From Balneolaceae bacterium (lineage in GTDB: Bacteria > Bacteroidota > Rhodothermia > Balneolales > Balneolaceae), in assembly GCA_040876545.1 (NCBI GenBank), contig JBBDPF010000029.1, forward strand, positions 1,056-65,055: a stretch of 64,000 nucleotides of DNA. Reading direction: 5' to 3'. How positions within the stretch are numbered: the first letter of the stretch is position 1; every line of letters begins with the position of its first letter. The translations under genes were made by a program, and so were the position numbers. Of the stretch, positions 4,011-56,656 are shown piece after piece. A model generated the notes under the pieces. The model searched no databases and was not told where the DNA came from. It saw nothing but the letters and a program-made list of their open reading frames with translations.

Positions 4011-5852
4011 GTGCCGAAAAATTTGAAAAATAATAAAAACCTGTTTTCTGAATTTTCACCCACTTCACTTGAAGAGTGGGAAGCCGTTCTTGAAAAAGAT
4101 TTAAAAGGTAAAGATTATCGGTTTGTACTGAAATGGGAATCACTGGAAGGAATCAGTGTGCTGCCATTTTACCGAAAAGAGGATCTTGAATCTGTTCAGC
4201 ACGTTAAAGAAAATTCACTATCAACGTCTGACCGAAATTGGAAAATCTGCGAAGAAATTTTTGAACCTGATCCCGCAAAAGCCGGTGAAGAAGCCCTTCA
4301 TGCAGTCGAGGCTGGCGCCACTACTTTAAAAATTAATGTATCTGATTCATCTGATAACAAATCCCGAACCCGGCTCCAGACTCAGCATGATGTTGATACC
4401 TTTTTCAGTAAACTTGATCTGAATAAAACCGAATTTCTCTTCAACTCAGAAATAAATTCCCGGGATTTGATGGCAAAGGTGAAAAATCACGCCATAAAAA
4501 CAGATATCAACATTAACGCATCTTTTCAATTCGATCCGTTTACCTTCGCCGCTGCAAATGGAGATTTAAATGAGGGAGAAATTGATTCTCTGATTCGGGA
4601 AATGTCATCGCAGCCGGACTATAAAACTCTATTTGTTGATGGAGCTTTTTATCATAATTGTGGAGCGACTATCATTCAAGAGGTTGGAATTGCCTTGGCT
4701 ATTGCAAGTGAATATGTAGCCCGCACGCCAGAGAATAACCGAAAAAAGACATCAAACCAAATATTCCTAAACCTCTCCGTCGGTTCACTATACTTTCCTG
4801 AAATTGCCAAATTAAGGGCGGTTCGATTACTGTGGACAACATTGATGAACGCCTATAAGATCGAAAATGCGGAGCCGGTTACCATTCATTCCACAACATC
4901 AACTTGGAATAAATCCACTGCCGATGCCCATAATAATATGCTTCGCGTTACCACAGAGGCGATGAGCGCGGTACTTAGCGGAACGGATTTGTTGATTGTC
5001 CACCCGTACAATCAACACTTCGAAAAACCGGATATTTTCTCAAAACGAATTGCACGAAATGTGAACCATATTTTGAAAGAGGAAGCCCATTTTACAAAAG
5101 TGTCGAACCCGGCATCCGGCACTTATTATGTGAAAATAATGATGGATCAAATTGCTAAAAAAGGATGGGAATTCTTTCAACAGATTGAAAACGAAGGTGG
5201 ATTTTTAAAAGCGCTGGAATCGGGAATGATTCAGGATGAAATCAATCGTTCGGCTGATGCAAAAAGAGAAGCCGTCGCTACAAGGAAAATCACGCTAACA
5301 GGCACCAATAACTATCCAAATGCGGAAAATAGAATACCTGAGGATCTGTTTGATAAAGAAAATATAGATAATGAATCCACTTTAACACCCCATCGTGCGG
5401 CAGAACCATTTGAAAAAATCCGCCTCAAAACTCAACAATGGAACAAAAGTAGTAACGAAGAACTTACCGCAACACTGATTCCCATCGGGGACAAACGAAT
5501 GCGAAAAGCACGGGCATCGTTTTCGCAAAATTACCTGCAGTGCGCCGGCATTTCTGTGCAAAATCATGTAGGATTTTCTTCCATACAAGAAGCGGCAGAG
5601 GAATTATCAGATGACAAATCACAAATCTTGGTTTTGTGCGGCTCAGATTCTGACTATGAAGAATTGGTTGATCCATTTTGTAAAGAATTCAAAAACAGTA
5701 ACCAACTTTTAATTTTGGCGGGATATCCAAAACAGAAGATTGAAGAGTACAAGGAAGCCGGGATTGATCTGTTTATTTATAACGGATCGAACATGATTGA
5801 TACACTTACAGAAATTCAACAGAATGTATTTAAAGCGAAAGATTTAAAATAA
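4011..5852 (+). CDS. mutA: methylmalonyl-CoA mutase small (beta) subunit
   Basis: This 613-aa mutase-fold protein ends 6 nt before the large subunit gene. Its C-terminal domain has LVLCGSDSDYEEL in place of the B12-binding DxHxxG motif, as expected for the beta subunit. The start codon is GTG. Confidence 0.8.
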   Translation: MPKNLKNNKNLFSEFSPTSLEEWEAVLEKDLKGKDYRFVLKWESLEGISVLPFYRKEDLESVQHVKENSLSTSDRNWKICEEIFEPDPAKAGEEALHAVEAGATTLKINVSDSSDNKSRTRLQTQHDVDTFFSKLDLNKTEFLFNSEINSRDLMAKVKNHAIKTDININASFQFDPFTFAAANGDLNEGEIDSLIREMSSQPDYKTLFVDGAFYHNCGATIIQEVGIALAIASEYVARTPENNRKKTSNQIFLNLSVGSLYFPEIAKLRAVRLLWTTLMNAYKIENAEPVTIHSTTSTWNKSTADAHNNMLRVTTEAMSAVLSGTDLLIVHPYNQHFEKPDIFSKRIARNVNHILKEEAHFTKVSNPASGTYYVKIMMDQIAKKGWEFFQQIENEGGFLKALESGMIQDEINRSADAKREAVATRKITLTGTNNYPNAENRIPEDLFDKENIDNESTLTPHRAAEPFEKIRLKTQQWNKSSNEELTATLIPIGDKRMRKARASFSQNYLQCAGISVQNHVGFSSIQEAAEELSDDKSQILVLCGSDSDYEELVDPFCKEFKNSNQLLILAGYPKQKIEEYKEAGIDLFIYNGSNMIDTLTEIQQNVFKAKDLK

Positions 5853-5858
5853 TCAGAA

Positions 5859-7997
5859 ATGAAACGACCTGATTTTTCAACTATAGATTATAATGAGTTC
5901 GCTGAGGATGTTTCCGGTCCGGCACAAAATGACGCCGAGGAATGGCTGACTCCGGAAAAAATATCTGTAAAGCCTCATTTTGATGAGACAGATATCAAAA
6001 ATCTCCACCACCTCGATTTTGCAGCCGGAATTCCGCCCTATTTACGTGGGCCGTATTCCTCGATGTATGCCAATCGTCCGTGGACAATTCGTCAATATGC
6101 CGGATTTTCTACTGCCGAGGAATCCAATGCTTTTTACCGACGAAATTTAGCGGGCGGACAAAAAGGGTTATCCGTTGCGTTTGATTTGGCCACTCACCGC
6201 GGATATGATTCTGATCATCCTCGTGTTTCGGGCGATGTTGGAAAAGCCGGCGTGGCAATTGATTCTATTTTAGACATGAAAGTTCTGTTCGATCAGATTC
6301 CGTTGGATGAAATGTCCGTTTCCATGACCATGAACGGAGCCGTAATTCCCATTATGGCGTTTTATATTGTGGCGGCCGAAGAGCAGGGTGTTCCGCCCAA
6401 AAAACTTCAGGGAACCATCCAAAATGATATTCTCAAGGAGTTTATGGTTCGAAATACGTATATCTATCCGCCTGAACCATCCATGAAAATCATTGGTGAT
6501 ATTTTTGAATATACGTCCAGAAATATGCCAAAATTCAACTCCATCAGCGTAAGTGGATATCATATGCACGAAGCCGGTGCCACTGCCGATATTGAGTTAG
6601 CGTACACTCTTTCTGATGCGTTGGAATATGTTCGCACCGGCGTGAAAACCGGTCTGGAAGTGGATCAGTTTGCTCCAAGAATTTCTTTCTTTTGGGGAAT
6701 TGGGATGAATCATTTTATGGAAATTGCCAAGATGCGGGCCGGCAGAATGCTTTGGGCTAAAATCATGAAGCAGTTTGAGCCGAAAAATCCAAAGTCATTG
6801 TCACTTCGAACGCATAGCCAGACATCCGGGTATAGTTTGACCGAGCAGGATCCTTTCAATAATGTAGCCCGAACTACCATCGAAGCAATGGCCGCTGCGC
6901 TGGGACATACCCAATCACTCCACACGAATGCGTTGGATGAAGCGATTGCCCTCCCAACGGATTTTTCAGCCCGAATTGCCCGAAATACTCAAATTTACCT
7001 GCAAGAGGAAACCGGGATAACAAAAGCGGTAGATCCATGGGCAGGTTCCTATTATGTGGAATATCTAACCGATCAGATTGCCAAAAAATCGTGGGAGTTG
7101 ATGCAGGAAGTGGAAGAACTGGGTGGGATGTCGAAAGCGATTGAGACCGGTGTTCCAAAAATGCGGATTGAAGAAGCCGCCGCAAGAAAACAAGCCCGCA
7201 TCGACAATAAAAAAGAGGTGATTGTTGGGGTGAATAAATATCGCCTTGAAAAAGAAGATCCAATTGATACCTTGGAAGTGGATAACGAGAAGGTTCGTCA
7301 GTCGCAGATCAAGCGATTACAAAAGCTGAAAAAAGAACGGAATGATGAGGCTTTCAAAAAATCAATTGATACATTAGAAAAAGAAGCTTCAGCCGGAACA
7401 GGCAATCTGCTTGAGCTGGCTATTGACGCTGCACGAAACCGGGCAACCCTTGGCGAAATATCCGATGCTATGGAAAAAGCATTCGGACGATATCAGGCAA
7501 CCATAAAATCCATATCAGGCGTGTATTCTTCAGAAATAGATGACGATAGTTCTTTCAAAAAAGCACAACAAATGGCCGACCAATTCGAGGAGCTTGAAGG
7601 AAGACGTCCCCGAATTATGGTGGCAAAAATGGGCCAGGATGGCCACGATCGCGGAGCCAAGGTGATCTCCACAAGTTTTGCAGATCTTGGTTTCGATGTA
7701 GATGTTGGCCCTCTATTTCAAACTCCCGCAGAAGCCGCCAAACAGGCCGTCGAAAATGATGTGCATATTTTAGGTGTTTCAAGCCTCGCTGCCGGACACA
7801 AAACGCTCGTGCCACAAGTATTGGAAGAGCTAAAAAAACTCGGGCGTGATGACATTATGGTCATCGTCGGCGGAGTTATTCCCAATCAGGATTATAAATT
7901 TTTATATGACAAAGGAGTTGCTGCGGTATTTGGGCCGGGAACGGTTATATCTGAAGCTGCACAAAATATTTTGAGTATTTTGATGAAAGTGGAATAA
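5859..7997 (+). CDS. mutB: methylmalonyl-CoA mutase large (alpha) subunit
   Basis: The 712-aa translation has the mutase TIM-barrel motifs ([19 protein letters not shown]) and the C-terminal cobalamin-binding motif [11 protein letters not shown]. Confidence 0.95.
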
Positions 7998-8116
7998 CCG
8001 CTAAGGTCACAAAGGTTTGCACAATGAACACGATGGAGTAGTAAGAGAAATTCCAGAATTTAAATTTTAATTCTCCATTGTGAACCTTTGCGAAATCCTT
8101 CGCGACCCTTGCGGTT
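7996..8116. repeat. hairpin unit A1: left arm 7996-8036 (AACCGC...), 38-nt AT-rich loop, right arm 8075-8116 (...GCGGTT)
   Basis: The arms are imperfect reverse complements: aaccgctaaggtcacaaagg against ccttcgcgacccttgcggtt. The left arm starts inside the mutB stop codon (gaaTAACCGC). Confidence 0.8.
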
Positions 8117-8150
8117 AAAATGACGTCTTATTTTAAACCATAAACCGAAT
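8111..8150 (+). repeat. 40-nt perfect direct repeat, copy 1 (gcggttaaaatgacgtcttattttaaaccataaaccgaat)
   Basis: This sequence is identical to 8678-8717. Its first 21 nt recur at 8999-9019, where they run into the meaB ATG. Confidence 0.95.
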
Positions 8151-8151
8151 C

Positions 8152-8192
8152 AACCGCAATGGACACAAAGGTGTGCGCAATGTCCTCAATGG
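8152..8192. repeat. hairpin unit A2, left arm
   Basis: The sequence aaccgcaatggacacaaaggtgtgcgcaatgtcctcaatgg is related to arms 7996-8036 and 8719-8753. It is complementary to the right arm at 8643-8683. Confidence 0.75.
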
Positions 8193-8238
8193 GGTTTAAG
8201 GAGGAGAGATTTTTAATTGATAATTTAATAAGATTAAG

Positions 8239-8634
8239 ATGATTGAAAATAAAATTTCAAAAGAAGTCTTAGATTCTGCCTTTAAGGTGCATACAAAATT
8301 GGGTCCGGGATTACTTGAATCTGCCTATCAGGAGTGCTTGTTTTATGAGATAAAGAAAAAAGGACTTATAGTCGAAAAAGAGTGCCCACTACCACTTGAA
8401 TATGAAGAAGTAAGACTTGATGTAGGATATCGGATTGATTTATTGGTTGAAAAGAAGTTTGTTGTAGAAATAAAATCAGTTGAAAAGCTTACCGATGTAC
8501 ATCTTGCACAAATATTAACTTATTTAAAGCTCTCTGAAAATAAATTAGGCCTATTATTAAATTTCAATGTTTCTCGTTTAAAAAATGGCATTAAACGAGT
8601 TATAAATAGTCGAACGAGAAATTTAAATTTCTAA
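8239..8634 (+). CDS. GxxExxY protein (PD-(D/E)XK nuclease superfamily, PDDEXK_3-like)
   Basis: The 131-aa translation has GPGLLESAY (GxxExxY) and the nuclease-type motif D-x-LV...VVEIKSV. It ends NFNVSRLKNGIKRVINS, as is typical for this family. The gene lies between the arms of unit A2. Confidence 0.85.
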   Translation: MIENKISKEVLDSAFKVHTKLGPGLLESAYQECLFYEIKKKGLIVEKECPLPLEYEEVRLDVGYRIDLLVEKKFVVEIKSVEKLTDVHLAQILTYLKLSENKLGLLLNFNVSRLKNGIKRVINSRTRNLNF

Positions 8635-8642
8635 ATATCATT

Positions 8643-8683
8643 CATTGCGAACCTTTGCGCAAACCTCTGCTCTCATTGCGGTT
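8643..8683. repeat. hairpin unit A2, right arm
   Basis: The sequence is cattgcgaacctttgcgcaaacctctgctctcattgcggtt. Its reverse complement, aaccgcaatgagagcagaggtttgcgcaa, matches the left arm at 8152-8192. Confidence 0.75.
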
Positions 8684-8717
8684 AAAATGACGTCTTATTT
8701 TAAACCATAAACCGAAT
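8678..8717 (+). repeat. 40-nt perfect direct repeat, copy 2
   Basis: This sequence is identical to 8111-8150 and lies 567 nt downstream of it. Confidence 0.95.
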
Positions 8718-8718
8718 T

Positions 8719-8753
8719 AACCACAATGAACGCAGAGGAGTGCTCAATGATGG
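8719..8753. repeat. hairpin unit A3, left arm
   Basis: The sequence aaccacaatgaacgcagaggagtgctcaatgatgg belongs to the same arm family. Confidence 0.7.
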
Positions 8754-8766
8754 ATGTTTGGTGGAA

Positions 8767-8929
8767 ATCTCCCCTGGAGGGGAGTTAACGTTGAGCGTTC
8801 AGCCCCGCCGTATGACGGGGGAGGGGTGTCCCATAAATCCACTAAATTTATAGGAATGATTTTATACCTTTACAACACCCCTCGCATAATCATCTGAACG
8901 ATGATTATGATCTCCCTTCAAGGGGAGAT
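8767..8929. other. hairpin-rich ~165-nt module (MITE-like or structured RNA) carried inside unit A3
   Basis: Five consecutive stems are visible:
- ctcccc/ggggag (8769-8784).
- ccccg/cgggg (8803-8820).
- gaggggtgt/acacccctc (8821-8883).
- cataatcatc/gatgattatg (8885-8909).
- atctccc/gggagat (8909-8929).
The first and last hairpins resemble each other (ATCTCCCnT..AGGGGAG), so they look like terminal repeats. The module contains no ORF. Confidence 0.5.
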
Positions 8930-8961
8930 ATTTTACTAGATCTAAATATCAAACCTTATTA

Positions 8962-9004
8962 CTCATTGTGACACTTAGCGCAATCCTTCGCGACCCTTGC
9001 GGTT
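8962..9004. repeat. hairpin unit A3, right arm
   Basis: The sequence is ctcattgtgacacttagcgcaatccttcgcgacccttgcggtt. Its last 23 nt (atccttcgcgacccttgcggtt) match right arm A1 exactly. Confidence 0.8.
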
Positions 9005-9017
9005 AAAATGACGTCTT

Positions 9018-10091
9018 ATGACCAAACCCAATAACAAATCACTTTCAATAAATAAAGGAACCGAAGTACATGAATCGGTGAACCCAAACTATGCTTCAAA
9101 AAAAGTAAAGTTGAGAAGTATGGATGAATATGTTGAAGGAATTAAATCCGGAAACAGGGCTTTTTTATCGCAAGCTATTACGTTGATTGAAAGCTCTAAA
9201 AATGAGTATCGTCAGCTGGGACAGCAGATTTTGGAGAAGGTGATTCATCTGACCGGAAATTCTGTGCGAATTGGAATTACCGGTGTACCCGGTGTTGGGA
9301 AAAGTACTTTTATTGAAGCATTGGGCCGGCAAATATTGAAAGATGGTGGATCATTAGCCGTTCTCGCTGTGGATCCAACAAGCAGCCGAAGCAAAGGAAG
9401 TATTTTAGGTGATAAAACACGCATGGAAACTCTCTCTACTCATGAAAGGGTATTCATCCGACCCTCACCAACCTCCGGGAATTTAGGGGGAGTAGCACGT
9501 AAATCCCGCGAAACGATGTTGCTTTGTGAAGCCGCAGGGTTTGAAACGATTTTTATTGAAACCGTTGGTGTGGGTCAATCAGAAACATCGGTTCACAGTA
9601 TGGTTGATTTTTTCCTTCTGTTAATGTTGGCCGGTGCCGGAGATGAACTTCAGGGAATTAAGCGGGGAATTATGGAGATGGCGGATCTGATTGCCATCAA
9701 CAAGGCAGAGAAGGATAATTTAAGTGCTGCCAAAAAAGCTCGGCAAGAATATGAAAATGCATTATCACTCTTTCCGCCATCCCCATCAGGCTGGAAACCA
9801 AAAGTAGTAACCTGTTCAGCTTTAAAAGGGGAGAGAATTGATGAGGTGTGGGCTCAAATCAACGAATATTTTGATCAAACCAAGAAAAACGGGTTTTTTA
9901 ATAGCCGCAGAAAAGAGCAGTCTACCTATTGGATGTACGAGACGATAAATCAGGAATTAAAGAGCCGGTTTTTTAAGAATCCTGTAATTGAAGAGCAGCT
10001 CAAACTATTTGAGGAGAAAGTTAAGGACGGTAAAATCAGTTCTTTTAGAGCCGCAGAAGAGCTGCTGAAGATCTTTGAGAAATCGGAGTAG
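9018..10091 (+). CDS. meaB: methylmalonyl-CoA mutase-associated GTPase MeaB (ArgK family)
   Basis: The translation has the P-loop GVPGVGKST, the switch region VGVGQSE and an NKAE (NKxD-like) motif. It is 357 aa long. An alternative start lies at M35. Confidence 0.9.
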   Translation: MTKPNNKSLSINKGTEVHESVNPNYASKKVKLRSMDEYVEGIKSGNRAFLSQAITLIESSKNEYRQLGQQILEKVIHLTGNSVRIGITGVPGVGKSTFIEALGRQILKDGGSLAVLAVDPTSSRSKGSILGDKTRMETLSTHERVFIRPSPTSGNLGGVARKSRETMLLCEAAGFETIFIETVGVGQSETSVHSMVDFFLLLMLAGAGDELQGIKRGIMEMADLIAINKAEKDNLSAAKKARQEYENALSLFPPSPSGWKPKVVTCSALKGERIDEVWAQINEYFDQTKKNGFFNSRRKEQSTYWMYETINQELKSRFFKNPVIEEQLKLFEEKVKDGKISSFRAAEELLKIFEKSE

Positions 10092-40596: not shown

Positions 40597-40721
40597 GTGA
40601 GTAAAATAGCTTTGTGAACGTTGTGCTTGTCTACATTTATATTCAAATATAGTGTATTTTTGGCTCCATCACACATCGGAATCAATTCTGAATGTTGAGT
40701 TCTGAGATTTAAAAAATTTAC

Positions 40722-40816
40722 TAACCACAGCGGCTCGGCGGATTCACAGCGAACACGGCTTTCTCGTTTTAAATTTCCTCTGTGACCGCTGTGCATCCGC
40801 TGCGTCCGCCGTGGTA
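40722..40816. repeat. hairpin unit B1 (TAACCAC...GTGGTA)
   Basis: The left arm taaccacagcggctcggcggattcacagcg is complementary to the right arm cgctgtgcatccgctgcgtccgccgtggta. The loop is AT-rich. The unit is about 75% identical to B2. Confidence 0.8.
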
Positions 40817-40844
40817 AAAAACTTTTCCAATTGATGCACTTCTA

Positions 40845-41218
40845 TTACAAAATCACTCTTTTGATTCCATTTTTTAATAAGGAGGTATTGAAATTAATCA
40901 GTAACCCAATCTGTTATCTGAAAGTTTTAGGTAGGTTAATACTTGGGCAAGATGAACATCATGTATTGCCTCTACGGATTTTATTTCAAGGATTAAAGCG
41001 TTCCCAACAAGAAAATCCATCCGATATGCCGTTTCTAAAAAGCGTCCCTTGTATTCAAGTGGAACTTCATTTTGAGATATAAATGGGACCGATTGTTCAA
41101 TAAATTCAGCCTCAAGAGCCATTTGGTAAGCGGACTCCAGAAGTCCCGGTCCTAAATTTCTATGAACCTGAAATGCACAATCAAGAACTTTCGTTGCCAA
41201 TCTATTTTCCCTCTCCAT
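40845..41218 (-). pseudogene. GxxExxY protein gene with a C-terminal frameshift
   Basis: The ORF 40898-41218 has GPGLLESAY and LILEIKSV but stops at ...KLSDNRLGY*. The family's normal tail, GLLINFNTSLLKNGIKRVIL*, continues in the next frame to 40845. A single missing T in the ggtt(t) run near 40903 explains the shift. Confidence 0.7.
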
Positions 41219-41369
41219 AAATCCTCTTGTCTTAGGTTTATTAAGTCAATTATTTCTTTCTCAGCATTGGAATGAACTACAATTGTATGAACTCATTATT
41301 CAAACTTCCTTACAGTTTTAAGTTGTGATTTTTTCTAATGATGGGATTGATGTGCTTTAAAACCATTGC

Positions 41370-41465
41370 TAACCACAACGACTCGGCGGAGTCACGGCGA
41401 ACACGGCTTCTTCATTTAGAGTTTACTCTTTTGCCCCGCTGTGCATTCGCCGAGACGCCGTGGTA
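41370..41465. repeat. hairpin unit B2
   Basis: The unit runs from taaccacaacgactcggcggagtcacggcg to cgctgtgcattcgccgagacgccgtggta. It is a direct repeat of B1, 648 nt away, on the other side of the GxxExxY pseudogene. Confidence 0.8.
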
Positions 41466-41492
41466 TCTCCCTCAACTTAAGCCAATCCCCCA

Positions 41493-41999
41493 TCACAAAT
41501 CCTTCGGGCTCTTTATCCATTTTAAAGTACACTCACCTGAACGCACATCTTTCCAGTTTCCAATATTTACCTCAAAACAGGCAATGGTAGCGGTGGGAAC
41601 AGCATTAGTAAAACGCCTGTCTGATAGCTCAGCGATGACCTGCTCCGTCATTGGGTTGTGGCCAACTGTCATTACCACATTACACTCTTCAGACGTTTGT
41701 CTGATAGCATCCAGATAATCCTTCGATCCTCCATAATACAGATCATCATTCCACGAAATTATCTCCTCATTCACACCTAATTCATCAACCACAGACAGAA
41801 CAGTTGCTTTTGCCCGGGCTGCGGGCGAACTGACAATGGCATCAGGAATCAGGTTCAGCCGTTTCAACAACTGCCCCATTTTTGGAGCATCTTTTTTGCC
41901 CCGATTGTTCAGCGGACGCTCAAAATCCTTGAGGTCACGATCTCCCCAAGAGGATTTTGCGTGGCGCATAAGGAGAATAGTTTTGGGTGATGGTGGCAT
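41493..41999 (-). CDS. histidine phosphatase family protein (SixA-like)
   Basis: The translation has the N-terminal LLMRHAKSSW (RHG/RHA catalytic motif) and a later GHNP motif. It is 168 aa. Confidence 0.75.
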   Translation of the reverse strand: MPPSPKTILLMRHAKSSWGDRDLKDFERPLNNRGKKDAPKMGQLLKRLNLIPDAIVSSPAARAKATVLSVVDELGVNEEIISWNDDLYYGGSKDYLDAIRQTSEECNVVMTVGHNPMTEQVIAELSDRRFTNAVPTATIACFEVNIGNWKDVRSGECTLKWIKSPKDL

Positions 42000-55692: not shown

Positions 55693-55717
55693 CACCTCAG
55701 CAAACGCTTCGTTCTAA

Positions 55718-55969
55718 CTATTTTTCTCGGTAAAAATAAATCTTCTTATTGTTTGCGTCCTTACCACTTTTAATTTTCACATTATTCTCTTGATTGTACT
55801 GATATACAGCCGTTCTCATAGAGTTAACGCTTTTATCATTTGTATATTCAACTTCTACTGCCTGTCCGCCCGGTTGTAGTTTATCCAAGGCATCCATCAA
55901 GGGCTTAAACTTTGATGATCTTCGCTTACTTGATTTTATTTGTGATCGTTTTACGAATTTTATGTCCAT
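55718..55969 (-). CDS. hypothetical basic protein
   Basis: This is an 83-aa Lys/Ser-rich ORF. I recognise no motif. It is convergent with the GH13-like gene. Confidence 0.35.
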   Translation of the reverse strand: MDIKFVKRSQIKSSKRRSSKFKPLMDALDKLQPGGQAVEVEYTNDKSVNSMRTAVYQYNQENNVKIKSGKDANNKKIYFYREK

Positions 55970-56380
55970 TTCTCAATATTCTGTTAATATTTATAACATT
56001 TTATGAATAATTTTTTTTCGAAACCTATGCATACAAAAGTCTACATCACAAGTATTAATTCAACATCATAATCTACTTATAAATGAATGACCAATAAACA
56101 TTTTAAAATAATTAAAACAAAAAGTAGTGAACTTCACTTTAATATTCTAAGGATTTAACATCCTTTAATGGCATGTTCGAAAAATATTACCACCTTTAAA
56201 CGTAGCTTTTATTTTATATTTAACTATAGTTGGCAATCTACTCTATTTATTACGACAAGGCTGAAAAATTGTTTCTTGTGATATTTTATATCATGTAAAA
56301 AAAAGTAATCAAGAAATATGATAAGGTATATTTATAGACATGGTGCCAGCTCTCTCACAAGCGTAACTCAAAAATCACAG

Positions 56381-56420
56381 AAAATAAAAAAGGACAACTC
56401 TATAAATAAAGTTGTCCTTT
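56381..56420 (-). terminator. Rho-independent terminator after tRNA-Val
   Basis: The stem pairs aaggacaac (56390-56398) with gttgtcctt (56411-56419). On the minus strand it is followed by a T-run. Confidence 0.65.
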
Positions 56421-56421
56421 G

Positions 56422-56496
56422 TGGGCGCTGAGGGATTCGAACCCCCGACCCCCTCGGTGTAAACGAGATGCTCTAAACCAACTGAGCTAAGCGCCC
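56422..56496 (-). tRNA. tRNA-Val (anticodon TAC)
   Basis: The reverse complement folds as a cloverleaf: GGGCGCT-TA-GCTC-AGTTGGTTT-AGAGC-A-TCTCG-TTTACAC-CGAGG-GGGTC-GGGGG-TTCGAAT-CCCTC-AGCGCCC-A. The acceptor, D, anticodon and T stems all pair. No CCA is encoded. Confidence 0.9.
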
Positions 56497-56520
56497 TGCA
56501 TTTGTAATCAGGACGCCAAA

Positions 56521-56606
56521 TATAAGAAGGTTAACGTTCTGCACAAAACAGTTTTTACTCTTTCAGAATTTTTTTATTTATAAGAAGAGGTTAACACCGT
56601 TAACCT
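56521..56606. promoter_or_regulatory. repeated motif and palindrome upstream of fadA (candidate operator)
   Basis: A direct repeat is present: tataagaaggttaac (56521-56535) and tataagaagaggttaac (56579-56595). The second copy extends into the 8-3-8 inverted repeat aggttaac-acc-gttaacct (56588-56606). Confidence 0.4.
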
Positions 56607-56656
56607 AAAATACTTATATTGATGAAAAGCTTCTTTAATTAAAAATAGAGTATATT

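Follow-up and report, generated by a model that had tools for sequence, protein, structure and literature searches.

The 1,020-nt gap that separates mutB from meaB in a 64,000-nt stretch of Balneolaceae bacterium DNA (assembly GCA_040876545.1, contig JBBDPF010000029.1, positions 1,056 to 65,055 of the forward strand; hereafter the window, whose own numbering is used throughout) is a head-to-tail array of three units, each delimited by a left (L) and a right (R) arm. Unit 2 is intact and carries a gene of the GxxExxY nuclease family, unit 1 is gene-less and resembles a miniature inverted-repeat transposable element (MITE), and unit 3 is gene-less with a payload that reads as the remnant of a DUF559-type element. 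As judged from sequence comparison, the arms belong to an element family that occurs in several phyla and form its conserved ends, and the GxxExxY gene is its native cargo, since the arms accompany GxxExxY genes in many unrelated loci and the arm type tracks the protein subfamily. The encoded Cas4/RecB-like nuclease probably recognises these arms.

The array between mutB and meaB

The genes, arms and payloads of the region are as follows.

4011-5852: mutA (NCBIfam)
5859-7997, plus strand: mutB, methylmalonyl-CoA mutase large subunit (NCBIfam PRK09426, E = 0)
7996-8036, plus strand: arm L1, AACCGC and four heptad-like repeats, left arm of the gene-less unit 1 (arm hidden Markov model (HMM) 7997-8034, E = 2e-6)
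8037-8074, plus strand: loop of unit 1, 38 nt, AT-rich, without an open reading frame (ORF)
8075-8116, plus strand: arm R1, ending GCGGTT (arm HMM 8077-8115, E = 9e-7)
8117-8151, plus strand: linker 1, 35 nt (AAAATGACGTCTTATTTTAAACCATAAACCGAATC), a direct repeat whose first 15 nt recur behind all right arms
8152-8192, plus strand: arm L2, left arm of the gene-carrying unit 2 (arm HMM 8153-8189, E = 0.028)
8239-8634, plus strand: GxxExxY gene of unit 2, 131 aa, intact (TIGR04256, 5.6e-42; PF13366, 6e-41)
8643-8683, plus strand: arm R2 (arm HMM 8644-8682, E = 1.6e-3)
8684-8718, plus strand: linker 2, near-identical to linker 1 (direct repeats)
8719-8753, plus strand: arm L3 (AACCAC...), the most degenerate of the six (arm HMM 8720-8750, E = 0.33; alignment)
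8754-8961, plus strand: payload of unit 3, a palindromic module without a gene (fold of 8785-8912, z = -4.1), with the motifs CTCCCCTGGAGGGGAG (8769-8784), GAGGGGTGT (8821-8829), ACACCCCTC (8875-8883) and CTCCCTTCAAGGGGAG (8912-8927)
8962-9004, plus strand: arm R3, ending GCGGTT (arm HMM 8964-9003, E = 1e-4)
9018-10091, plus strand: meaB, mutase-associated GTPase (NCBIfam PRK09435, 1.7e-143)

An HMM built from the arms of other loci only recovers precisely the six arms of the spacer (E from 9e-7 to 0.33) and gives no other match with E < 1 anywhere in the window. All six arms can be aligned with one another, and their pairing as inverted repeats is imperfect, extending over 26-32 nt at 75-81% identity (L1/R1, 77% over 30 nt; L2/R2, 79% over 29 nt; L1/R3, 81% over 26 nt; R1/L2, 76%; R2/L3, 81%). 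Because the six are alike the pairing geometry is ambiguous, and R1/L2 and R2/L3 also make hairpins across the 35-nt linkers. The succession of right arm, linker and left arm forms a 107-nt direct repeat, the first and second copies of which are 85% identical. Behind each right arm the direct repeat runs on for 15 nt (AAAATGACGTCTTAT), and after R1 and R2 it continues into the conserved 35-nt linker. The 19-mer TTGCGGTTAAAATGACGTC, which spans the end of the right arm, occurs three times against an expectation of 0.03. The array is also tightly fitted to its host genes: arm L1 (AACCGC from 7996) opens within the mutB stop codon TAA (7995-7997) and shares its first two bases with it, R3 ends at 9004, 13 nt before the meaB ATG, and the meaB leader together with the first two bases of that ATG falls within the 15-nt tail repeated behind the right arms.

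Against shuffled sequences, unit 1 folds as RNA with a z-score of -6.6, the scores of R1/L2, R2/L3 and the unit 3 inner module are -3.2, -4.6 and -4.1, respectively, and the fold of the whole spacer pairs the arms. A preliminary description of the window, made from its letters, had delimited the six arms and the three units of left arm, payload and right arm, had placed the outer limits of the array in the mutB stop and just before meaB, and had seen an intact GxxExxY gene in unit 2; the arm HMM, the mutual alignment and the TIGR04256 match agree with it on each of these points. Its further suggestions of a tandem amplification of the units and of a foreign payload in unit 3 also stand, given the 107-nt repeat, similar arrays in three other loci (L123, L134 and L162) and the occurrence of the unit 3 palindromes around a DUF559 gene in two relatives (L016 and L082, see below), and the repetition and folding of the arms exceed chance.

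The heptad hairpins are trailed by A-runs with no T-run, none of them scored as terminator-like in a terminator scan, and they differ from an intrinsic terminator, in which a T-run follows a GC-rich stem. Since A-runs and not T-runs follow the stem, the hairpins would be non-terminating, so that mutAB and meaB can stay co-transcribed. The sole terminator-like site of the spacer is the inner palindrome ATCTCCCTTCAAGGGGAGAT at 8910-8929, followed by ATTTTA; lying upstream of meaB on the sense strand, it could attenuate read-through.

Two origins for parts of the array were considered and rejected. The loop of unit 1 does not align significantly with the 3′ end of the unit 2 gene, as a deletion remnant would (alignment score 24, equalled by 24 of 500 shuffles), and the 35-nt linker is not significantly similar to the 5′ end of meaB or the 3′ end of mutB (365 and 182 of 1000 shuffles, respectively), as a tandem duplication of host flanks would make it; the linker shares with the meaB leader only its first 15 nt. 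In Rfam the window yields only one tRNA at the gathering score, the spacer has only chance-level matches at E <= 1, and ten array-rich loci have no match.

The GxxExxY protein

The product of the unit 2 gene scores 142.8 bits against TIGR04256 (cut-off 35) and 139.9 bits against PF13366, PDDEXK_3 (cut-off 22). Its motif residues are G24-L-L-E27-S-A-Y30, D67, E77-I-K79 and Q91xxxY95, and E27, Y30, D67, E77, K79, Q91 and Y95 are invariant in 32 sequences. We take the series E...D...ExK...QxxxY to be the motifs of RecB/Cas4-type PD-(D/E)XK nucleases and, the catalytic residues being intact, the nuclease is predicted to be active. Weak Cas4 matches were obtained in Pfam and PADLOC, and otherwise Pfam and NCBIfam return only PDDEXK_3/GxxExxY. 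The AlphaFold model is confident, with a predicted local distance difference test (pLDDT) score of 92. Among PDB folds it comes nearest to Cas4 SSO0001, lambda exonuclease and RecE, and also to tRNA-splicing endonucleases, though each match is weak (best E = 3.7e-3); no relative was found in the PDB by sequence.

The family comprises at least 7,999 clusters at 90% identity with E <= 1e-10, its members are 65-86% identical across phyla, and it is annotated in thousands of genomes, including those of gut Bacteroides. Among open-access papers we found no function and almost no literature for GxxExxY, PDDEXK_3, TIGR04256 or PF13366. Neither Rfam nor the open-access literature has a description of the arm architecture, an older account in a subscription journal being possible.

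The element family across loci and phyla

The family was surveyed in 80 metagenomic loci, further contexts and one Bacteroides finegoldii record. The canonical unit begins with the left arm (TT)AACCRCARAG-NN-CRCARAG-N4-5-CRCAAAG-NN-CRCAAAG and continues with 0-40 nt, the GxxExxY ORF from its ATG to its stop, 0-10 nt and a right arm in which these four heptads stand inverted and which ends GYGGTT(AA). Arms of this kind, about 40 nt long, abut the start and stop codons of the GxxExxY gene across many unrelated loci and phyla, and lone L-gene-R units with unique flanks and no array occur in L101, L154, L119, L121 and L114 as well as in B. finegoldii. Flanking inverted repeats have z > 5 in 31 of 77 loci, flanking direct repeats exceed this threshold in 26 and either kind does so in 44. 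Runs of at least three heptads number 170 in 1.07 Mb, and there are none in shuffled sequences or in 80 MeaB loci without a GxxExxY gene (about 700 kb).

Gene-less L-loop-R units of about 105-110 nt stand in head-to-tail arrays beside the genes (L123, L134, L162; up to at least six units), and in L123 at least six such units lie between two GxxExxY genes that are 96% identical. Gene-less hairpins are also dispersed with no gene nearby, including on GC-rich contigs. One such unit (L137, 1448-1535) lies in frame inside a 477-aa ORF for a site-specific DNA methyltransferase. Three homologues of this methyltransferase, on Chryseobacterium, Alicyclobacillus and Hymenobacter plasmids, are without about 18 residues at the hairpin point, and in them mod and res abut with no GxxExxY gene between. 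A plasmid collection searched for near-identical filled and empty sites returned only four distant matches. In some loci (L086, L123) the order is R-gene-R or L-gene-L, so that the ORF is not enclosable in a stem, and in others (L082 and the second locus of the window) complete hairpins stand on both flanks of the gene.

The context of the gene is strongly biased. Relative to it, the two neighbours are oriented (+,+) in 32 loci, (+,-) in four, (-,+) in two and (-,-) in none, and the median gaps to them are 88 and 73 nt. Both GxxExxY genes of the window are co-directional with their neighbours, the first between mutB and meaB on the plus strand and the second between two minus-strand genes.

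Several other arrangements were seen in the course of the survey. Four IMG/VR contigs (L262, L180, L205 and L251) carry GC-rich heptad hairpins (CACGAAGGACACGAAGG...CCTTCGTGTCCTTCGTGGTG), several per 10 kb, with no GxxExxY gene nearby, and some of these are nested with CACGGAG-type hairpins. In L128 (100-290 and 670-970) the GxxExxY gene is flanked by long one-orientation tandem arrays of a unit of about 25 nt (CTTTGTGGTAAANCACCTTCGWGCAC). The methyltransferase of L137 is also without a central segment of about 110 aa that is present in the homologues. Finally, genes for four-helix-bundle proteins (PF05635/TIGR02436, S23p/Avd-like) occupy short spacers between co-directional genes in L333, L337 and L341, with flanks rich in TCAGC/GCTGA and a significant inverted repeat in one of the three (z = 5.1, 1.1 and 0.4). 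An arm system common to the GxxExxY and TIGR02436 genes was considered and rejected, the three loci examined being without CRCARAG heptads.

The second GxxExxY locus and other features of the window

At 40600-41560 the window has another GxxExxY locus, whose gene lies inside a run of minus-strand genes that flank it on both sides.

40722-40812: complete hairpin of a second arm type (ACCACAGCGG...CCGCCGTGGT; fold z = -6.3)
40898-41218, minus strand: second GxxExxY gene, truncated (phmmer 3.4e-30; PF13366, 112.5 bits over 40901-41218)
41370-41466: complete hairpin of the same second arm type, on the other side of the gene (fold z = -4.4)

The product has 106 aa, against 124 aa in close homologues, with a frameshift near the 3′ end of the gene (frame change in tblastn). 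It belongs to another subfamily, being 53% identical to the first protein. Its arms share the ACCAC...GTGGT termini with those of the first locus, and their heptads are instead CACAGCG/CACGGCG.

In two other loci gx2-type genes adjoin toxin-antitoxin pairs (L274, 767-2783, and L273, 1-120; an Unstab_antitox/ParE pair and a PIN-domain pair) within polysaccharide-synthesis clusters (Epimerase_2, UDP-glucose dehydrogenase). Elsewhere in the window, 964 nt (55693-56656) are without a called ORF and include a tRNA gene at 56422-56496 on the minus strand (68 bits).

Probable recognition of the arms at the DNA level

We compared the paired L and R positions of 30 non-redundant gene-carrying units and counted 1,056 Watson-Crick, 52 G:U, 49 A:C and 192 other combinations. 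This spectrum of mismatches is the neutral 1:1:4, with no excess of wobble pairs and no strand asymmetry, and gene-less hairpins behave alike; there is thus no covariation of the kind found in RNA. Information content is 1.1-2.0 bits in the heptads against 0.2-0.6 bits in the spacers between them, the first five columns being fixed by the anchoring of the alignment. Successive heptads follow at 9 nt inside a pair and at 11-12 nt from one pair to the next, which sets alternate heptads 20-21 nt, and therefore about two turns of B-DNA, apart.

The arm type tracks the protein subfamily and not the locus or the host. The window alone has two subfamilies with two arm types, the gx2-type proteins of Rhodohalobacter barkolensis (L273) and of L274 are accompanied by CACRGYG heptads as at the second window locus, and the gx1-type loci hold 521 CRCARAG heptads against 85 of the other type. 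Taken together, the neutral mismatches, the conservation and spacing of the heptads and the link between arm and subfamily, this last in a small sample, speak for double-stranded DNA that is recognised by its sequence rather than for an RNA helix under selection.

The mutB-meaB junction in relatives

Relatives were compared through 80 loci encoding MeaB relatives (about 700 kb of Bacteroidota DNA), among which mutB stands immediately upstream of meaB only in Balneolaceae-type loci. The mutB-meaB spacers of other Balneolaceae measure 23, 65, 177, 194, 303 and 710 nt, and occupancy of the junction is variable and sporadic across the family. Hairpin elements seem to have a hotspot here. In the closest relative found, Rhodohalobacter L082 (MeaB 72%, C-terminal region of MutB 86.5% and GxxExxY 76% identical), it holds a GxxExxY gene and a DUF559 gene, the former flanked by a 143-nt direct repeat of 94% identity in which each copy consists of a right arm, a 46-nt loop and a left arm. 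Because L082 carries GxxExxY at the same junction, occupancy of the junction is older than the split between the two genomes, and the insertion is an old one. The arm sequences themselves are not conserved between the window genome and L082, and hairpin copies resemble each other more within one genome than across genomes; hairpin copies therefore turn over locally. The preliminary description had named conservation of the spacer in position and sequence across distant relatives as the mark of an old fixed regulatory region; the position is filled in L082, the arm sequences differ there, and the other spacers range from 23 to 710 nt.

The payload of unit 3 finds its counterpart at the same junction. 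The 710-nt spacer of L016 contains a gene for a DUF559 (Vsr-like) nuclease flanked by CTCCCCTCAAGGGGAG palindromes and ACACCCCTC/GAGGGGTGT, and in both L016 (700-1240) and L082 (3010-3500) the DUF559 gene is framed by perfect 16-18-nt palindromes (CTCCCCTCGAGGGGAG) and ACACCCCTC/GAGGGGTGT. Positions 8767-8930 of the window hold only the palindromic shell, with no DUF559 gene and in permuted order (p..x-loop-x'..p), and the payload is accordingly read, from these shared motifs, as what is left of a DUF559-type element that sits inside a heptad hairpin. The association of the CTCCCCTnnAGGGGAG palindrome with DUF559 is not general, as none of 40 viral-contig loci with the palindrome has a DUF559 gene; it is established at the Balneolaceae mutB-meaB junction only (L016, L082 and the window).

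Four further loci (L008, L013, L031 and L033) have the same junction filled with unrelated palindromic or hairpin sequences. The spacer of L031 includes GGGTTGCTAACCCG...CGGGTTAGCAACCCG, that of L033 contains several CCCGT/ACGGG hairpins, and that of L013 has one solitary palindrome of the CTCCTGCCTCAAGAGGGGAGG type.

Proposed origin and spread of the element

The explanation that we prefer, with slightly more belief than doubt, is that of a selfish or partly domesticated element bounded by terminal inverted repeats (TIRs), REP/RAYT-like (repetitive extragenic palindrome and REP-associated tyrosine transposase) or homing-like in behaviour and with MITE-like derivatives, whose nuclease acts on the arms and which spreads rarely. 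The arms would act at the DNA level as TIRs, each offering a series of sites to which the Cas4/RecB-like PD-(D/E)XK nuclease of the element itself would bind in order to synapse or cut them. Rare spread could then proceed through double-strand-break repair, or homing, into gene-less hairpins with the arms of about 40 bp as homology, or else through excision and insertion, and unequal recombination among the repeated arms would lengthen the local arrays. Having no promoter of its own, the gene would be expressed by read-through from the host operon, hence its position in the sense direction in tight spacers between co-directional genes. We infer binding, cleavage and mobility alike. Mobility at the DNA level is supported by the in-frame hairpin of L137, the element-free mod-res homologues, the dispersed hairpins and the varying occupancy of the junction, and growth of the arrays by duplication by the 107-nt repeat of the window, the 143-nt repeat of L082 and the 96%-identical genes of L123.

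A number of observations weigh against this explanation. Transposition and homing are deduced from sequence, no event having been observed. Each identical protein that was looked up had one genomic context across samples, with no near-identical copies at different sites, and the paralogues of the source genome are only 53% identical, with no sign of recent bursts. Occupancy of the mutB-meaB junction looks vertically inherited, given that the identity of the L082 GxxExxY protein falls between those of MeaB and the MutB C-terminal region, and strong purifying selection on a gene that seldom moves points to some function besides selfish spread. No target-site duplication is evident at the isolated units, where the A/T-rich extensions of the inverted repeats (TTAACC...GGTTAA) preclude calling short duplications, and the hairpin of L137 is not a clean insertion, since it takes the place of about 15 residues present in the homologues. 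For the link of arm type with subfamily there are only four gx2-type loci, one of them (L275) mixed. The two arms of a unit resemble each other only modestly more than they resemble foreign arms, with an identity of 0.77 within units against 0.675 between units and the own partner best in 7 of 20, and the strict sense orientation fits a role at the RNA level equally well.

Such a role is the rival that we take most seriously, though we judge it rather unlikely. The element would resemble a protein-coding intervening sequence, its L and R arms pairing in the mutAB-meaB transcript into an imperfect duplex of about 40 bp that is cut by RNase III or by the GxxExxY protein working as an RNase. Through this cut the nuclease mRNA would be excised or made more stable and the host cistrons would become uncoupled, much like the 23S rRNA intervening sequences that carry S23p. 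An ORF inside terminal inverted repeats does recall the Coxiella/Leptospira intervening sequence (PMC4990558), the gene lies strictly sense between co-directional genes with arms abutting its start and stop codons, the hairpins fold far better than shuffles, and tRNA-splicing endonucleases are among the weak fold neighbours. However, the near-equal numbers of G:U and A:C pairs in a neutral mismatch spectrum are not those of a selected helix, many units have inter-heptad spacers that show no conservation and no complementarity, and the R-gene-R and L-gene-L loci preclude a stem around the ORF; the gene-less hairpins that are dispersed or lie inside an ORF and the want of any Rfam match argue in the same direction. 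We regard as improbable, and more so than the RNA-level role, that the hairpins serve the host in the manner of REPs and bacterial interspersed mosaic elements (BIMEs), as mRNA stabilisers or as sites for a host factor that tunes operon expression, with the GxxExxY protein domesticated to maintain or regulate them. Two arm types in one genome that track protein subfamily argue against a single host factor, no such hairpins occur in the 80 MeaB loci, occupancy of the junction is sporadic among relatives and one hairpin interrupts a coding sequence, even though the intra-operon arrays of alternating orientation with conserved linkers are BIME-like, the insertion has persisted for long at the same junction, the protein is under strong purifying selection and the hairpins have no terminator features.

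The preliminary description had itself proposed a local hairpin, pre-existing between mutB and meaB, that was amplified in tandem and whose loops became landing pads for unrelated cargos. The arm HMM largely refutes this account, which now seems very improbable: the arm consensus recurs around GxxExxY genes at many loci that are unrelated and in many phyla, L-gene-R units also stand alone with no array, and none of the three four-helix-bundle genes examined has these heptads. What survives of it is that tandem amplification is real and that a different element sits in the loop of unit 3, and if the nuclease homes into empty hairpins these would be landing pads in a sense. We give hardly any credence to an integron-like cassette array (cluster of attC sites lacking integron-integrases, CALIN), in which the hairpins of right arm, linker and left arm would be attC-like sites between promoter-less cassettes. 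Same-orientation promoter-less ORFs are indeed split by imperfect hairpins of about 120 nt, there are loci with a hairpin on each side of the gene (L082 and the second window locus), and a few termini read RYYYAAC...GTTRRRY (e.g. L119, L095). Yet the minimal isolated unit is L-gene-R with arms beside the ORF, not an ORF and one hairpin, neither the arms of the window (GAATAAC, AATCAAC; GTTAAAA) nor most others match the core-site consensus, and the cargo is essentially always one gene family, unlike integron cassettes. As neither core sites nor unit boundaries fit, we rejected this reading.

If the preferred explanation of a TIR-bounded element with an arm-directed nuclease is pursued further, GxxExxY genes and their heptad arms may form a large, ancient and so far unrecognised "gene-in-hairpin" class, in which the nuclease would recognise tandem heptads and home into or mobilise gene-less hairpins, and whose relatives perhaps include DUF559 with CTCCCCTnnAGGGGAG and the S23p ORFs. 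We offer this broader idea tentatively and are inclined to doubt it. Were the class to include S23p ORFs, the intervening sequences would be the visible part of something wider inside operon transcripts.

The stereotyped cis-architecture of heptad arms, arrays of gene-less hairpins and sense insertion gives the GxxExxY family a testable role, with its own arms as the probable DNA substrate. A nuclease that mobilises hairpins would be a new enzyme class among the few proteins by which repeat elements spread in bacteria; it would account for a group of hairpin repeats that are intergenic and occasionally in frame, and might help to explain how rRNA intervening sequences with an ORF arose. In annotation, long spacers in such conserved operons as mutAB-meaB, batA-batB, hemL-hemE and mod-res become recognisable as insertions of a heptad-arm element.

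Comparison with known systems

Integron cassettes and attC arrays share with the heptad element promoter-less ORFs of the same orientation between imperfect hairpins of about 100-120 nt. In the heptad element, however, a unit extends to the outer tips of the two arms around its ORF, a consistent R''/R' core is missing and the cargo is not diverse. No integrase association turned up among the annotated genes, of which mutAB and meaB flank the array.

Homing endonuclease genes occur free-standing or borne by introns, and I-Ssp6803I is an example with the PD-(D/E)XK fold. Like them, the GxxExxY gene is a small nuclease gene between conserved genes, co-oriented with these and present or absent at orthologous junctions, and homing would use the heptad arms as homology. 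It differs in carrying its own conserved inverted arms, of which gene-less copies exist.

TIR transposons have MITE derivatives, and Rickettsia palindromic elements insert in frame into genes. The resemblance here lies in terminal inverted repeats of about 40 bp around one gene and in gene-less hairpin derivatives of about 105-125 nt, one of them in frame (L137). Unlike such transposons, the heptad element has no dispersed families of near-identical copies, its arms consist of tandem heptads, and it is without a DDE, HUH or serine/tyrosine recombinase. No target-site duplication was seen, though short ones would be masked by the A/T-rich extensions of the repeats.

In architecture the closest analogue is the ORF-bearing intervening sequence of 23S rRNA, in which the ORF encodes the four-helix-bundle protein S23p and which in Coxiella/Leptospira has a 28-bp stem cut by RNase III (PMC4990558). 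Common to both are a small ORF within terminal inverted repeats that could form a long stem, the sense direction in the host transcript, a sporadic distribution and a mechanism of spread that is unexplained. The heptad element, in contrast, lies in spacers of protein-coding operons and not in rRNA helices (Rfam finds no rRNA in the window), its cargo is a nuclease and not a four-helix bundle, and its arms have no signature of selection at the RNA level.

The closest functional analogue is the REP/BIME system with its RAYT (REPtrons, REPINs). There, too, one small nuclease gene lies between inverted copies of the repeat cognate to it, gene-less repeats occupy operon spacers, arrays of alternating orientation have conserved linkers, and the repeat type co-varies with the protein lineage. 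The differences are that GxxExxY is a PD-(D/E)XK (RecB/Cas4-like) protein and not an HUH/Y1 TnpA(IS200)-like one, and that each arm consists of four heptads with the hairpin forming between L and R, whereas a REP is self-palindromic with a GTAG head. GxxExxY genes are moreover multi-copy in a genome, each in its own arms (two in the 64 kb of the window). Also, gene-less heptad copies cluster near the genes in the loci examined, and the window has no arm copies outside its two GxxExxY loci, unlike the widely dispersed REPs. On the broader idea offered tentatively above, in which the nuclease homes into or mobilises gene-less hairpins, the heptad element would match REP/RAYT in mechanism while relying on another nuclease fold.

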